Positions 3,013 to 52,520 of a stretch of DNA of 52,520 nucleotides are shown piece after piece. How positions within the stretch are numbered: the first letter of the stretch is position 1; each line of letters opens with the position of its first letter. The notes under the pieces were generated by a model, which did no database searches, had not been told where the DNA came from, and saw only the letters and a program-made list of their open reading frames with translations. The position numbers and the translations under genes are program-made. Source of the stretch: a virus (lineage: Duplodnaviria; Caudoviricetes); the IMG/VR virus record IMGVR_UViG_3300031576_000059, positions 1-52,520 of that record. The stretch is one strand, 5' to 3'.

Positions 3013-3402
3013 ATGAACTCCAGGTCTCGTAGGCGCCGTGGTCGAGGTTTCTGGGCTTCCTACAGCCGCCGTCGCTCCTGGGCGATCCTACTGTGGAGAC
3101 ACCTGATTGTCCTCGCCGGGGATCGGTGTCTCTGCTGTGAGATGCAAGGGATCCCTCTGACCATCGATCACGTCGTGCCTCTGGGTCTCGGAGGGCAGGA
3201 CGACATACGCAACATCCAACCTCTCTGTGGCCCCTGCAACGCGGCGAAGAACGACTCCCCCGGTCTCCGTTGCGCCGACTACCGGACTCCCGAGATCCTT
3301 CGCTTCGAACACCTCTCCTGGTCCGAGCAGGTTCGGTGCATCGTTTCCAATGGGCCTGTCCGCTTCTCCAGTGGCCCCGGCTGGGAATGGACCATCGCCT
3401 GA
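3013..3402 (+). CDS. HNH endonuclease
   Basis: CLCC...TIDHVVPLGLGG.DDIRNIQPLCGPCNAAK; stop overlaps the terL start (TGATG). Confidence 0.9.
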   Translation: MNSRSRRRRGRGFWASYSRRRSWAILLWRHLIVLAGDRCLCCEMQGIPLTIDHVVPLGLGGQDDIRNIQPLCGPCNAAKNDSPGLRCADYRTPEILRFEHLSWSEQVRCIVSNGPVRFSSGPGWEWTIA

Positions 3403-5375
3403 TGCCCTACTCCCCCGAGATCCCCGGCCACCCCCTCCTCCCTCTCGACCCCATCGAATCCCGCACTTTCACCCGCGACCTCCTCTTCGCTGGCATATAC
3501 GGTCTCGCCGAGAACACCTCGAAGGTCTGGCTCGCAACCCGCGCCCGAGCCCGCCGAGACCTCCTCTGGGCCTGTCGCAACGTCCTCAACCTCGACCGGC
3601 TCGACGAGGCGCATCACCGGCCCCCGGCGGACTTCATCATGTCCGTGTGCAAATCACCCCACGGCTTCGGGAACCTCCGCGACCCCCGCGGCAACGGCAA
3701 GACCTCCCTCAGCACTCGTGGCGGCACGGTCTGGGTGCTCATCCAAGACCCCATCGAGTGCATCGAACGCGGCTGGCCGATCCGAGGGCGCGAGAGCCGC
3801 ATCGGCATTACCACCCTCAAGATGGACCTCACCTATGACTTCATGCGCGTCGCCCTCGACGACATGAACAACGAACTCCTCCGCTGGGCCTTCCCTGAAC
3901 TCTTCCCCAGCGCCCCCCGCCGCTGGAGTATCAAGGGGATCGAACTCCGTCGCGGCCTCACCGAGGAGCTGGAGAGCCTCCGCGATCACCCCCTGTTCGC
4001 CACATACCCCTCCCAGACCAAATGGCCCGACCCGACGATCTCCCCCCGCGCCCTCGAATCCGGTGTCGCCGGCCCGCACTCCCACGGCGAATTCATCGAC
4101 GACCCTGTGAACACGAAGACTTGGAACTCCGAGACGAACATCGACAACGCGATCCACGGGATCCGGCAGCTCTTCTCCGTCACCCGCCCGGAGCAGGGGT
4201 TTCGCCTCGTCACCGGCAATCACTGGACCGCCGGAGATGTCGCCGACACCATCGACCGCCAGGACGGCAACTGGCGCGTCTTCATGCGCTCGATGACCGC
4301 GTGCACGCTGTGCCGCGACGGTTGGCCCACGGACAGCTCCGGCATCCCCGAGCGCCGCGCCGACAACCGCTGGGTCCATCAGCACGCCGACGCCGACGGC
4401 ACCCCCCTTCCGACCTTCACCTGGCTTATGAAAGAAGCCGACGGCTCCGTCCCTGATGCCGCCGTGATCTACGCCGGCTGCGCCACCAAGCACATCGCCA
4501 TGAGTCAGTACGAGAACTCCCCCTACGACTCCGAGGCGACGACCTGGGATTCCAAAACCCTCCCGCGCTTCCGCTACTTCGACGTGCCCGGCGCCATCAC
4601 CGACCCGCCGAAACTCGGCTGGCGTCTCGCCTACCCCAGCACCACAACCCCCGGCGACCTCACGACCCGCCTCTCGGACCTGCGGATCGGCATCACCTAC
4701 GACCCGGCGCACGGCGCGGACGAGGGAACGTCTCGACACGCGATAGCCGTGTGGGGCTGGCTCCCCGACGACCGCTTCGCGTGGCTCGAATCCTACACTT
4801 GGCCCAGCGCTGACGCCCTCGACGCCCTCGACACCCTCGTCTGGCTCATCCACCGTCTGCACCCGAACAAAGTGGGCATCGAGTCGGTGGGGTATCAGCG
4901 CGTGATCCGCCCGCTCATCTGGCGCGAACTCGAAGCCCGTCGCACCCCCTGCTGCTTCGTTCGCGTCACCGACCCGAAGCGCCTCGGCTGCACCGTCCAC
5001 CGCCTCGACCCGCTCGTTCGCTCCCCCATCGCCGAAGACGACATCATCCCGATCCCCCGCACCCGCGAACAAGGCCGAAAGTCCGCGTACATCCGAGACG
5101 CCCTTGGCCCGCTCATCAACACCCGCGCCATCCTCCTCCCCGCTTCCCCTGCTCCCGGTGCCGCCGAGTCCTCCCACGCCATCGACGTGTTCCCCGTCAC
5201 GATCACCGACCTCATCGACGCCGCCGCGATGATGCCGCACCTGTTCGAGGGTCGCCCGCCGGCCACGCGGGAGGCCAAGATGGAGCGGCGCCGGACGTTG
5301 AAGTTCCGCCAGCTCCGCCATCGCAAGACCGCCGGGGTGACGGGGTACGGGGACTTCGGGCGGCGCCCGCGATGA
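3402..5375 (+). CDS. terL: Terminase large subunit
   Basis: Walker A PRGNGKTS, Walker B EFIDDPVN, nuclease motifs ITYDPA, VGIESVGYQ, DLIDAAAM; lies upstream of the portal. Confidence 0.88.
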   Translation: MPYSPEIPGHPLLPLDPIESRTFTRDLLFAGIYGLAENTSKVWLATRARARRDLLWACRNVLNLDRLDEAHHRPPADFIMSVCKSPHGFGNLRDPRGNGKTSLSTRGGTVWVLIQDPIECIERGWPIRGRESRIGITTLKMDLTYDFMRVALDDMNNELLRWAFPELFPSAPRRWSIKGIELRRGLTEELESLRDHPLFATYPSQTKWPDPTISPRALESGVAGPHSHGEFIDDPVNTKTWNSETNIDNAIHGIRQLFSVTRPEQGFRLVTGNHWTAGDVADTIDRQDGNWRVFMRSMTACTLCRDGWPTDSSGIPERRADNRWVHQHADADGTPLPTFTWLMKEADGSVPDAAVIYAGCATKHIAMSQYENSPYDSEATTWDSKTLPRFRYFDVPGAITDPPKLGWRLAYPSTTTPGDLTTRLSDLRIGITYDPAHGADEGTSRHAIAVWGWLPDDRFAWLESYTWPSADALDALDTLVWLIHRLHPNKVGIESVGYQRVIRPLIWRELEARRTPCCFVRVTDPKRLGCTVHRLDPLVRSPIAEDDIIPIPRTREQGRKSAYIRDALGPLINTRAILLPASPAPGAAESSHAIDVFPVTITDLIDAAAMMPHLFEGRPPATREAKMERRRTLKFRQLRHRKTAGVTGYGDFGRRPR

Positions 5376-5396: not shown

Positions 5397-5425
5397 TTGA
5401 CACCTCGCACGCGCAGGAGTAGCGT
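5397..5425 (+). promoter_or_regulatory. Sigma70-type promoter upstream of the portal operon
   Basis: TTGACA (5397-5402), 17-nt spacer, TAGCGT (5420-5425), intergenic. Confidence 0.65.
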
Positions 5426-5473
5426 TGCGAGGTGGCTGGACTCGGCCGGGGGGCGCGAAAGGACCACAGACCC

Positions 5474-40486: not shown

Positions 40487-40805
40487 CCCCGTCCTCCTTG
40501 TGTCCCGTGCCGCTTCCCGAGATACTCCTCCAGGTACGTCCCCCTATTCGGCAGCCCGCGCATGTCGCGCCTCCAGAATTGCGCCCCCGCCCACCCGCAC
40601 CGTGCGGGAGCCGGGCGCACCTTGCCGAGGATGCCCGGCACGGACGGGGGCGCGAGATCGCACCACTTCTTCTTCAATGGGCAGCCTCGATTTGAACGAG
40701 GGACGAGAAGGGCTTCTCTCGTCATATTAGCCTTGGGGACCAATGACCCCCCTTGCGCCTTTGTACCGGGCCAACGCCACGTCTCTGCCCATCGAAACGC
40801 CTACG

Positions 40806-49980: not shown

Positions 49981-50184
49981 CTAGGGCGAGGAGGCTACGA
50001 TTTGCCTCGAATCCTCGACAACCTGCGGCCCCCGCTCTATCGCCGCGAGCAGCTCCGTGTCCTCGCTCGTGAGGCCGGTGAGTTTCAACGCCTCTTCCGG
50101 CACTAGCGTGTGCTCAAGGTACGAGCAGAACATGTGCGGCTCCATGGGCCTCTCGTACCTCTCGGTGCACGTCAGACAGATCAT
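49981..50184 (-). CDS. Hypothetical protein
   Basis: SD GGAGG; ATGA coupling. Confidence 0.5.
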   Translation of the reverse strand: MICLTCTERYERPMEPHMFCSYLEHTLVPEEALKLTGLTSEDTELLAAIERGPQVVEDSRQIVASSP

Positions 50185-50669
50185 CCTCTCCTCCCAGCGT
50201 GCTTGTACGGCTTTCCCTTCGGAAACTCCGCACCCTCAAACACGCAGTGGTAGTAACTCTCCAAGAACTCCCACAGCGCCTCACCGCCTTCGTTGCAGAG
50301 AATCCGAAACGGCTCATGGGCGTTCAACCCGGATCCGTCGGAGTAGCACTCAGCGCCGAGCAGATCGCATTTCGTTGAACTATGCCCTGCGTAGTGTGGT
50401 TCCCTGGCGTGATACCCGAGGTCGGCAGGCATCGCGGGGCGAACCTTCGAGAAGTCAAGCTGAGTGGGCTCCGGCAACCATCCCGCGAATAGAAGGAACT
50501 GCACCGCCCCCTTCTCCCCTTTGAGGATCCATCGGATCTGCATCCCGTGAATCCCGTGGCTCCCTCCCGCTCCGGGTTTGCAGTCTGGACTCCCGTTGAC
50601 GCACTCGAACCGGATGCAATCGTGTCCAGGTTCGAAGGCAACACTACGCTCGAAACTCATGCAGCTCAT
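50181..50669 (-). CDS. Cys/His-rich phage hypothetical protein
   Basis: SD GAGGAGG; GAVQF, ADLGYHA, CYSDGSGL motifs. Confidence 0.7.
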   Translation of the reverse strand: MSCMSFERSVAFEPGHDCIRFECVNGSPDCKPGAGGSHGIHGMQIRWILKGEKGAVQFLLFAGWLPEPTQLDFSKVRPAMPADLGYHAREPHYAGHSSTKCDLLGAECYSDGSGLNAHEPFRILCNEGGEALWEFLESYYHCVFEGAEFPKGKPYKHAGRRG

Positions 50670-50902: not shown

Positions 50903-51099
50903 CTCGCCCCCTCCCCCGGATCCCTCATCCGAAACACTCCCGACTTCATCGCGTCCCCCGTACACGCCTCACACATCCGTGTACCCGTGCGGTCCTCCAT
51001 GTCCACCCGAAACAAGGTAGCCGTGGCCCTCTCCTCGCACGAGCCCAGGCACTCTGGGCACGAGGGGTCCGTGTCCTCGCACACCGGCCTGTGGCTCAT
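50899..51099 (-). CDS. Zn-finger hypothetical protein
   Basis: CPEC...CEAC; SD GGAGG. Confidence 0.6.
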   Translation of the reverse strand: MSHRPVCEDTDPSCPECLGSCEERATATLFRVDMEDRTGTRMCEACTGDAMKSGVFRMRDPGEGAR

Positions 51100-51287
51100 C
51101 TGGCCTCCCTCCACGCCGGCCCCGGCATGAGCGCCGAGAGTGCCATGAGCAGTCCTGCGGCGACCACGCATCTCCTCCGCTCCAGGCCCCGGCACTCCAG
51201 CTCCTCGACCTCGAATTGTAGCCTCTCCGCACGTTGCTCCACCCTCCCCCTCCACGTCGCTTCGAACCGTGTCACCTGCGTTGTCAT
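51096..51287 (-). CDS. Hypothetical protein, first gene of the leftward block
   Basis: SD GGGGAGG. Confidence 0.55.
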   Translation of the reverse strand: MTTQVTRFEATWRGRVEQRAERLQFEVEELECRGLERRRCVVAAGLLMALSALMPGPAWREAR

Positions 51288-51409
51288 GCTACCTCCCCTC
51301 GCGTGAGATTACCTCGCCACCCTCCTCGCACGTCTCGCCTCGTGTCCCTCGCGCATCTCGCGCGGGGATCGTGCTCGAAAGGCTGGTCGATCCAGGATTC
51401 TACTTTCAC

Positions 51410-51590
51410 TTCCGAAACCGCCGATTTCCGAATTGTCCTAGAGCAGAGCGGCATTTGGAGTGAACTACAATGAATGTCACCCATGACTGACAAAGATTGT
51501 CAGTATTGGCCGCTGTGGCGTGACCTAAATTGTCGTTCACTCTAAAACCATTGCGGCACTAGGACGATTCGGAGATTGCTGGTTTCGGAG
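51410..51590 (+). ncRNA. Candidate rod-shaped structured RNA with 6S-like geometry
   Basis: 32-position closing stem (5 G-U, 1 mismatch), 12x12 nt bubble and interrupted apical stem; the wobbles work on the + strand. Confidence 0.55.
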
Positions 51591-51643
51591 CCGTCTACAG
51601 AGGAAGTCGGATAGGCCGACTTCGCTAAAACATGGAGCGAGAT

Positions 51644-52102
51644 ATGAGCGAGAACATGCGAGCAGAGACGGACATCCTGAAAGAGCTGAACGCCACCCAC
51701 AAAAAGGCTGGAGGGCGGCAACTCGGGGAACATGTCGGGTACGCGATCTCCGTGCGGCTACCGAAGTACGTCGAAGGGAGCGCCGTCCGGGTCCATGCGG
51801 TACACGTCGCAGGGGAGGATCTGGTGCTCGCACCTCCGCTGGGCGCAGAGGAAACGTCGGAGATGCTCCGGGGAGTGGATTCCCCGGAGATGCGGCGGGC
51901 GGTAAGCGAAGCGGCGGTCGGCACAATTCCCTTTGCGTGGGATCTGGAAGGCGCGCAAATCGAAGAGGGAACGATCAACGCGCAAGACTACATGCTGGTC
52001 TCTCCCGAACCGCGCAAGGCGAAGGGCGTAGCGCCCACGGTGGATCTGGCGGCAGTGATCGCCTCGGCGGTCAAGGCCGCGTTGAAGTCGGTCAAGGCGT
52101 AA
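51644..52102 (+). CDS. Hypothetical protein
   Basis: SD GGAG; 152 aa with G-ending codon style. Confidence 0.7.
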   Translation: MSENMRAETDILKELNATHKKAGGRQLGEHVGYAISVRLPKYVEGSAVRVHAVHVAGEDLVLAPPLGAEETSEMLRGVDSPEMRRAVSEAAVGTIPFAWDLEGAQIEEGTINAQDYMLVSPEPRKAKGVAPTVDLAAVIASAVKAALKSVKA

Positions 52103-52169
52103 AGCTCCACAATCAACGACCGCTGGGGAGCGATTGCGAGCCCCAGCGGTCACAATCGCGGGGAAAACA

Positions 52170-52346
52170 ATGTCAACATTCCGGTACGTCGGTACGCGGT
52201 TCGGGGACGCGGTAGCCGTGGACCCGGTGACAAAGGCCGAACTAGTCCTTTGTGCGAACGGGGCGCTGTACTCCCAGACCGCAAGCGGGGCTCCGCTTTC
52301 CGTACTGTTCTCTGTCTATCCGCCGCGCCCAGAGTACAGCAAGTAG
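52170..52346 (+). CDS. Hypothetical protein
   Basis: 58 aa ORF followed by a hairpin. Confidence 0.5.
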   Translation: MSTFRYVGTRFGDAVAVDPVTKAELVLCANGALYSQTASGAPLSVLFSVYPPRPEYSK

Positions 52347-52356
52347 CACGCTCGCG

Positions 52357-52384
52357 GGGAGAGGAGCCTTGCCGCTCCTCTCCC
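52357..52384 (+). terminator. GC-rich hairpin after the last + strand ORF
   Basis: GGGAGAGGAGC-N6-GCTCCTCTCCC; no clear T tract. Confidence 0.4.
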
Positions 52385-52393
52385 TCACCCTCT

Positions 52394-52520
52394 CCCCGCC
52401 GATGCGCCCATCGCATCCCGCGATGCCGCGCCAGCATCCCCGCGATCCCCATCGCGCAACCCGCCCACGCGATCCCCGTCCCGCGAGCGCTCGAAACCCC
52501 CCAAGGGGTACCCCTCTTTG
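52394..52520. repeat. Direct terminal repeat (copy 2 of 2)
   Basis: Matches bases 1-127. Confidence 0.95.

Follow-up and report, generated by a model that had tools for sequence, protein, structure and literature searches.

Genome organization and genetic context

The window analysed here corresponds to one complete virus record in IMG/VR (52,520 bp), whose DNA is present in sequencing runs labelled cave metagenome. Its first 127 bp are identical to its last 127 bp (1-127 = 52394-52520) and the map is thus circular, with a length of 52,393 bp; this overlap implies a circular map but need not reflect a true terminal repeat. Its sequence is rich in C and contains short direct repeats (7-26/28-47 and 45-64/72-91). 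With its 52.4-kb genome, the phage is a novel tailed, podovirus-like virus.

The gene layout was deduced from third-position GC gene calling and family scans (Pfam and PHROGs; 54 ORFs scanned). The structural block (3270-33697, + strand) encodes the large terminase, an SU10-like portal and adaptor, the capsid protein, and an M15 endolysin. The early/replication block, as delineated by the same gene calling and family scans, occupies the - strand from 51287 down to 33758, with genes for a family A DNA polymerase, a UDG-like protein, a Sak4-like ATPase, an HTH protein, RadC, and a ThiF-like protein. Its first gene, ORF63 (51287-51096, - strand), has a GGGGAGG ribosome-binding site ahead of its start. 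A small rightward unit comprises two genes, the orphan ORF152 (51644-52102, + strand, with an alternative ATG at 51632) and, as its second and last gene, ORF58 (52170-52346, + strand). The D5-like helicase gene (329-1768, - strand, stop codon at 329-331) forms a - strand unit with the gene of a 341-aa protein (1956-2981, - strand), which is encoded divergently beside the large terminase gene (3270-5375, + strand). The position of the 341-aa protein beside the terminase is kept in two metagenome loci (L082 and L083). Transcription from ORF58 and from the helicase gene converges on a 375-bp non-coding stretch at the circular junction, which extends to about position 330. The Pfam and PHROG scans of the 54 ORFs recognised no integrase, protelomerase, or RNA polymerase, and no reverse transcriptase was found.

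GC skew is negative (about -0.1 to -0.3, and close to -0.2 over most of the genome) across both gene-block orientations and weakens only from about 51000 to 3000. This one-sign skew is compatible with unidirectional replication starting near the helicase and origin region (see below).

Several other elements of this genome deserve mention. ARAGORN called a 97-nt tRNA-Trp (anticodon CCA) at 40677-40773 on the - strand; this call is doubtful, since an Rfam scan of the whole window at gathering scores returned no tRNA. An early protein of about 160 aa (50184-50669, - strand), rich in Cys and His and without Pfam or PHROG match, has 1082 representative homologues at E <= 1e-3 (best identity 62%) and occurs in 33 IMG/VR loci. 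Judged by these homologues, it is a widespread uncharacterised phage family, and a 234-aa ORF call for it is probably too long at the 5' end. In run X1, a 90-nt contig matches 51965-51998 (34 bases, inside ORF152) with one difference; on either side of the match is a 28-nt stretch, and the two stretches have the same consensus, offset by one base. From this arrangement, the contig looks like a CRISPR spacer against the phage, maybe from the same sample.

Architecture and stability of the rod

The 344-bp non-coding gap from ORF63 (- strand, start at 51287) to ORF152 (+ strand) contains an imperfect hairpin of 181 nt (51410-51590), hereafter designated as the rod. An earlier reading made from the sequence alone (the sequence-only reading) had placed it between divergent gene blocks, and the gene layout bears this out. 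The rod sits in an island of low GC content (0.47-0.49 vs 0.64) exactly where the two blocks diverge; it lies 41 nt upstream of the first ORF152 ATG and 53 nt from the second, and ORF152 is the first same-strand gene downstream.

The predicted fold agrees with the one that had been outlined. The lower, closing helix pairs 51410-51441 with 51559-51590 on the + strand over 32 positions, namely 26 Watson-Crick pairs, five G:T pairs (51410/51590, 51420/51580, 51423/51577, 51426/51574, and 51434/51566), and one C:C mismatch (51421/51579). Its 5' arm carries TTCCGAA twice (51410 and 51426), 16 nt apart, and its 3' arm TTCGGAG twice (51568 and 51584). Above this helix is a 12x12 bubble in which 51442-51453 (AGCAGAGCGGCA) lies opposite 51547-51558 (ACCATTGCGGCA); the minimum free energy (MFE) structure places a few weak pairs there, some of which are dropped in the centroid. 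The two sides of the bubble are direct repeats in register, with 9 of 12 positions identical and an exact GCGGCA (simulated chance 4e-4), the two GCGGCA copies being 105 bp apart. In an RNA, such repeated motifs would give a two-fold symmetric loop. The upper helix (51454-51493 with 51497-51546) is interrupted as previously proposed: on the 5' arm, a 12-bp helix is followed by a mismatch, a 5-bp helix, a 4x4 loop, another 5-bp helix, and an apical helix of 8 bp, and the 3' arm includes a 10-nt insertion (51510-51519) predicted to fold as a small side hairpin, which would create a three-way junction near the apex. The apical loop (51494-51496) has only three nucleotides, giving a dyad centre TGACAA-AGA-TTGTCA. 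Overall, the arms are 74% complementary and the non-pairs are grouped in discrete loops rather than evenly spread. A small 8-bp hairpin (51603-51623, + strand) separates the rod from the start codon; it is followed by no U-tract and is therefore not an intrinsic terminator.

As an RNA, the + strand of 51410-51590 has an MFE of -94.6 kcal/mol, compared with -46.3 +/- 4.0 for shuffled sequences (z = -12.0; 0 of 200 as good), and the - strand reaches -80.8 kcal/mol (z = -9.4). DNA parameters gave -49.1 (z = -9.7) and -46.8 kcal/mol (z = -9.3) for the + and - strands, respectively. The fold persists in a 301-nt context. In a genome-wide scan (180-nt windows, step 20, GC-corrected), both scan windows covering the rod were the top outliers on both strands, and a gapless inverted-repeat scan scored the rod at 25.0, vs 17.0 and 13.5 for the next two repeats in the window. 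The rod is confirmed as a real and unique feature, far beyond chance, and as the strongest local fold and inverted repeat of this genome. DNA reads from two runs of one sample display no variant letters and no joints over the region, and run X2 has zero cover at about 51443-51574.

Strand bias of the arm mismatches

The alignment of the two arms comprises 63 Watson-Crick columns, seven G:T on the + strand, and no A:C on that strand (binomial probability about 0.016, two-sided). Controls were provided by 48 distinct helicase-linked repeats (51 minus three duplicates; see below). Pooled, these repeats have a balanced number of G:T and A:C (159 vs 167), with a G:T share of 0.215 among 738 mismatches, and the absolute difference between G:T and A:C is at least seven in only 1 of the 48. 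At this control share, the five G:T, zero A:C, and single transversion of the lower helix have a probability of 2.3e-3. The bias opposes genome composition, as the + strand is C-rich and G:T pairs add G and T. Moreover, the asymmetry between strands is seen with RNA energies (-94.6 vs -80.8) and not with DNA energies (-49.1 vs -46.8).

The sequence-only reading had also counted six G-U pairs in the + strand fold, and the MFE structures do contain six on the + strand and one on the - strand. It took this excess as a sign of selection on a single-stranded structure. Only part of that argument stands: the 7:0 bias of the arm alignment speaks for it when set against the controls, while the asymmetry between MFE structures is ordinary, since 10 of the 48 control repeats differ by at least five G-U pairs between strands. 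The relative energy gap between strands is as large in 10 of the 48 controls. Selection acting on the + strand in single-stranded form thus has moderate support and is not proven.

These data also bear on the view that the rod is a fairly recent palindromic duplication, devoid of function, with arms in the course of decay. Its occurrence as a singleton, with no second copy in the genome and no match in the collections scanned, is what such an event would leave behind. Decay, however, would have to account for mismatches that are clustered in loops and lean 7:0 towards G:T on the + strand, as well as for arms only 74% complementary that nevertheless produce the most stable fold of a compact genome. 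This explanation is considered unlikely.

Promoter signals and repeated motifs

The hexamer TACTTT (51401-51406), previously noted as a possible -10 box, is present just ahead of the rod without a -35; no other TAnnnT hexamer occurs on the + strand in 51288-51409. As a candidate -10, it would direct an RNA start to the base of the rod, at about 51412-51414. On the - strand, the overlapping hexamer TAGAAT (51402-51397) could serve the leftward early operon as a candidate -10. According to our own estimate, TAnnnT hexamers are not enriched in 51000-52520, and a consensus scan of the same interval detected no sigma-70-like promoter. Searches with a position weight matrix (PWM) returned only weak, non-significant sites in the rod region, each lacking A2 or T6 of the -10: TTGTCA-N18-TGTAGT on the - strand (rank 14 genome-wide), and GTGACC-N17-TAAAAC on the + strand (rank 47), the latter on the 3' arm with its -10 at the edge of the bubble. 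About 0.3 matches of rank-47 grade are expected in the region by our own estimate. The three best PWM sites genome-wide (1902-1874 and 42527-42499 on the - strand, and 5397-5425 on the + strand) all have the form TTGACA-N17-TAGnnT, which we take to be actinobacterial and which suggests a host of actinobacterial type. Promoters reduced to a -10 are common in actinobacteria. The site at 5397-5425 ends 7 nt ahead of the ATG at 5432, a spacing that suggests a leaderless mRNA.

The heptamers TTCCGAA/TTCGGAG of the lower helix are near-palindromic and occur twice per arm with a 16-nt spacing. Motifs of the rod do not recur elsewhere in the genome above chance, with observed vs expected counts of 42 vs 37.9 for TTCSGAR, 29 vs 44 for GAGTGAAC, and 3 vs 3.2 for CTAGGAC.

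Together with the low-GC island between the diverging blocks, these motifs raise the possibility that the rod acts as double-stranded DNA, as a regulatory palindrome. The arms would then serve the two diverging transcription units as mirror-image modules of operators and promoters, the TTCCGAA-type heptamers of both arms being binding sites for a dimeric regulator. In another version, divergent transcripts would both start in the bubble and share a near-identical leader of 32 nt. The regular spacing of the heptamers, the -35-like TTGTCA hexamers placed back to back at the dyad, the two PWM matches, and the GCGGCA direct repeats 105 bp apart are consistent with this organization, as is the frequency of MFE-based strand asymmetry in true DNA repeats. 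Against it, pairing extends over the spacers and is not confined to the motifs, the 7:0 transition bias finds no explanation, the motifs show no recurrence above chance, the promoter matches are weak (with about 0.3 of the rank-47 grade expected in the region), and no regulator was identified beside the rod. A regulatory palindrome remains a tentative explanation, to be weighed seriously next to the leader RNA discussed below.

A natural point of comparison is provided by the nut and put sites of lambdoid phages (lambda nutL/nutR and HK022 putL/putR), which are twin cis elements of divergent early operons. As in these pairs, the same sequence read outward on both strands appears as a large inverted repeat. 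Unlike them, the rod has a repeat that runs without a break over the entire interval, and neither an antiterminator nor a boxA/boxB-like motif was recognised.

Relationship to the replication origin

Another inverted repeat, with arms made of tandem TGACGGG-type iterons, is found at 238-340, directly adjoining the D5-like helicase gene at its stop codon. Helicase relatives with 32-48% identity were collected at 80 IMG/VR loci. At 78 of these, the sequence continues downstream of the helicase match for 300 nt or more, and in 51 of the 78 the best inverted repeat of the 4-11-kb locus starts between -60 and +450 nt from the end of the helicase match. The 15 loci that were folded have two or three tandem iterons of 7-10 bp per arm, lineage-specific in sequence, around a non-palindromic centre; only the iteron arms pair and the centre is unpaired. 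The same iteron origin architecture was described for the self-loading helicases of SaPIs in excerpts of PMC9371898. By its architecture, the repeat at 238-340 is probably a replication origin of the SaPI type, and its recurrence beside the helicase in 51 of 78 related loci makes it likelier than the rod to be the origin. The suggestion that the rod might be an origin hairpin of single-stranded DNA is weakened accordingly, the conserved iteron repeat beside the helicase being the better candidate. Like an origin of this type, the rod occupies low-GC non-coding DNA near the helicase gene and has a motif twice per arm. It differs by its distance of about 1.1 kb from the helicase stop codon, by heptamers (16 nt apart in each arm) different in sequence from the TGACGGG iterons, and by a centre that is paired throughout in place of a non-palindromic, AT-rich one with two or more tandem iterons on either side in opposite orientation.

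Other roles as a single-stranded DNA hairpin can be envisaged, including a signal for priming or for initiation on a single strand, an additional replication site in cis, a promoter of the Frpo type, or a hairpin for concatemer processing close to the genome end, as in T7. The G:T pairs of the + strand would help a DNA hairpin too, the helicase gene is only about 1.1 kb away and the repeat-rich non-coding region at the circular junction about 0.8 kb away, and the one-sign GC skew suggests unidirectional replication through this region. Under DNA energy rules, however, neither strand is more stable than the other (z = -9.7 and -9.3); by the skew, the exposed strand would be expected to be the - strand and not the + strand; and the canonical origin architecture, with iterons that the rod lacks, is already found at 238-340 and at the related helicase loci. 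A function as single-stranded DNA is therefore regarded as quite improbable. Frpo of conjugative plasmids is a long imperfect hairpin with -35/-10-like boxes in its stem and mismatches that mimic an open promoter. The rod shares the long imperfect hairpin, the promoter-like boxes in the stem, and the mismatched region, but its boxes are weak, and Frpo needs a stage of single-stranded DNA entry that is not expected of a tailed dsDNA phage.

Search for related sequences

BLASTN analyses of 51288-51640 against 50,697 GenBank phages gave no match. Four gapped or degenerate DNA patterns of the rod had no match in IMG/VR or in GTDB genomes, the GTDB scan being that of the genome_contigs collection with an arm pattern of 20 specified bases. 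ORF152 belongs to no Pfam or PHROG family, has no homologue in IMG/VR, and retrieved only itself among 5.8 billion protein clusters; its Atlas model (pLDDT 0.32) offered no usable feature match. A single-query search of IMG/VR with the D5-like helicase found nothing, and when the rod region was compared by BLASTN with the 80 helicase loci mentioned above, the best match had an E value of 0.058. The 33 loci with the early 160-aa protein have that gene alone in common with this genome and no comparable repeat (one scoring 22.0 and the others at most 16.0, vs 25.0 for the rod).

The large terminase (3270-5375, + strand) has 13 homologues among the 5.8 billion clusters, with 42-52% identity, and no TBLASTN match in GenBank phages. 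A terminase alignment search detected no locus in IMG/VR or in GTDB genomes and four loci in JGI metagenomes, from all of which the helicase, ORF152, and the rod region are absent. Based on this distribution, the large terminase is in a very rare clade. The lineage of phages to which the rod belongs has almost no sequenced relatives.

Several classes of elements with long inverted repeats or structured RNAs were considered and set aside. A protelomerase target of the telRL type was rejected, as no protelomerase domain was found in the 54 ORFs scanned and the centre is a 3-nt non-palindromic loop with flanking mismatches. A MITE or mobile inverted repeat was rejected on the basis of the single copy, the absence of pattern matches in GTDB and IMG/VR, and the lack of a direct repeat abutting the ends. 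A retron non-coding RNA was dropped since no reverse transcriptase was found, as was a packaging RNA of the phi29 type, given the lack of an Rfam match and the presence of a terminase. A mimic of a CRISPR repeat was also considered and dropped.

Comparison with 6S RNA

The sequence-only reading had likened the rod to 6S RNA. Members of this family bind the housekeeping RNA polymerase holoenzyme, act as template for product RNA (pRNA), and build up as a stable RNA of discrete size. The predicted fold has the geometry of this family, with a closing stem, a central bubble, and a terminal stem-loop within 150-200 nt, but membership was not upheld by the searches. Scanning the whole window with Rfam cmscan at gathering scores gave no match, and no 6S-type model appeared in 51250-51750 even at E <= 10, where only three chance-level matches, all far below thresholds, were obtained (C0299, with an E value of 0.15, Zeta-pan, and RsmY). 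In the 6S consensus, two conserved G-C pairs flank the bubble on each side, as stated in excerpts of PMC4064990. These clamps are missing from the rod, where the lower edge of the bubble is formed by G51441-C51559 followed by A51440-T51560, and the upper edge by three U-A pairs (T51454-A51546, T51455-A51545, and T51456-A51544).

The rod could still be an open-promoter mimic of the 6S kind, or another protein sponge, cut from the ORF152 transcript; as a 6S-like RNA, it would sit in the active site of the host's sigma-70 type holoenzyme. Consistent with this view, the 181-nt hairpin combines a closing helix of 32 positions, a 12x12 bubble at hairpin positions 33-44/138-149, and an apical helix, and the weak -35/-10-like pair GTGACC-N17-TAAAAC brings a -10 to the edge of the bubble. 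In addition, the rod precedes a same-strand ORF, as ssrS, the 6S RNA gene, precedes ygfA (excerpts of PMC4064990). The missing covariance-model match and G-C clamps argue against it, as do the partial closure of the bubble in the MFE structure and a closing helix that is almost uninterrupted, whereas the arms of 6S RNA are bulged. No phage-encoded 6S RNA was found in the literature searched, including excerpts of PMC8545117. Furthermore, as no phage RNA polymerase was found in the 54 ORFs scanned, the phage would block an enzyme that it appears to need. Such a mimic has a slim chance of being correct.

Compared with 6S RNA (RF00013; E. coli ssrS), the rod is similar in size (about 180 nt), in the succession of closing helix, bubble with a dozen nucleotides per side, and apical helix, and in its position upstream of a same-strand ORF. 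It differs in the near-perfect closing helix, in bubble strands that are direct repeats of each other, and in being encoded by a phage without a detected polymerase of its own. An equally small chance can be granted to a stable phage non-coding RNA of a new class, in which the symmetric bubble, with GCGGCA on each strand and set between the 32-bp helix and the AU-edged upper one, would dock a host protein through two-fold or promoter-like recognition. In its boldest version, the docked protein would be the housekeeping RNA polymerase holoenzyme, and the rod the first phage-encoded open-promoter mimic.

A structured leader RNA as the preferred interpretation

Among the readings considered, the most likely, although a tentative one, is that the rod is the 5' leader of the ORF152 transcript and probably a target of RNase III; the DNA regulatory palindrome is nearly as likely. 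The rightward ORF152-ORF58 transcript would carry the rod at its 5' end as a structured, cis-encoded RNA, and may start near 51412 from the -10-only promoter TACTTT. Host RNase III, which is specific for double strands, would bind and probably cut the lower helix of 32 bp and perhaps also the 12-bp helix on the other side of the bubble. The cut would detach the rod from the mRNA or else protect the 5' end, and either outcome would set the stability and timing of the ORF152-ORF58 operon. The symmetric GCGGCA bubble may position a dimeric RNA-binding protein or restrict cleavage.

An RNA of this kind is favoured by the stability and uniqueness of the fold (z = -12.0 and the top outlier of the scan), by arm mismatches biased towards G:T on one strand (7 vs 0 A:C) against the composition of a C-rich + strand, and by a strand asymmetry specific to RNA energy rules. 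Pairing that continues to the 3-nt apex, unlike in the helicase-linked origin repeats, and non-pairs grouped in discrete loops point in the same direction. RNase III sites are intramolecular double-stranded stems of about two helical turns or more, and the rod, if transcribed as one RNA, would offer a predicted helix of 32 positions. Double cleavage of intramolecular stems by this enzyme is described in excerpts of PMC6212723, in line with the proposed processing. On the other side, no promoter or terminator was recognised, sigma-70-like sites being absent from 51000-52520; the MFE-based G-U asymmetry is ordinary among controls; and the searches described above found no relatives. The heptamer pairs, the back-to-back TTGTCA, and the 105-bp-spaced GCGGCA also read naturally as protein sites in double-stranded DNA, and the action of RNase III is here purely inferred.

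The interest of the locus depends on which of these readings holds. If the rod is an RNA, few of the leader or non-coding structures described in tailed phages would be as large or as stable, and a phage decoy for RNA polymerase or another dsRNA-binding host factor would, if true, represent a new mechanism of host takeover. As a DNA palindrome, it would pinpoint the master control of divergent early transcription. For now, the rod is a clean, testable orphan and not yet a discovery.

For the preferred leader RNA, the closest known systems are the RNase III leader hairpins of phage early transcripts, represented by the T7 R sites and the lambda N leader. The rod is three times longer than these, its internal loop is a symmetric 12x12 bubble, and no sequence similarity is available to connect them. 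Like the T7 R sites and the lambda N leader, it is a long stem with an internal loop, located in what is proposed to be the untranslated leader of an early transcription unit.
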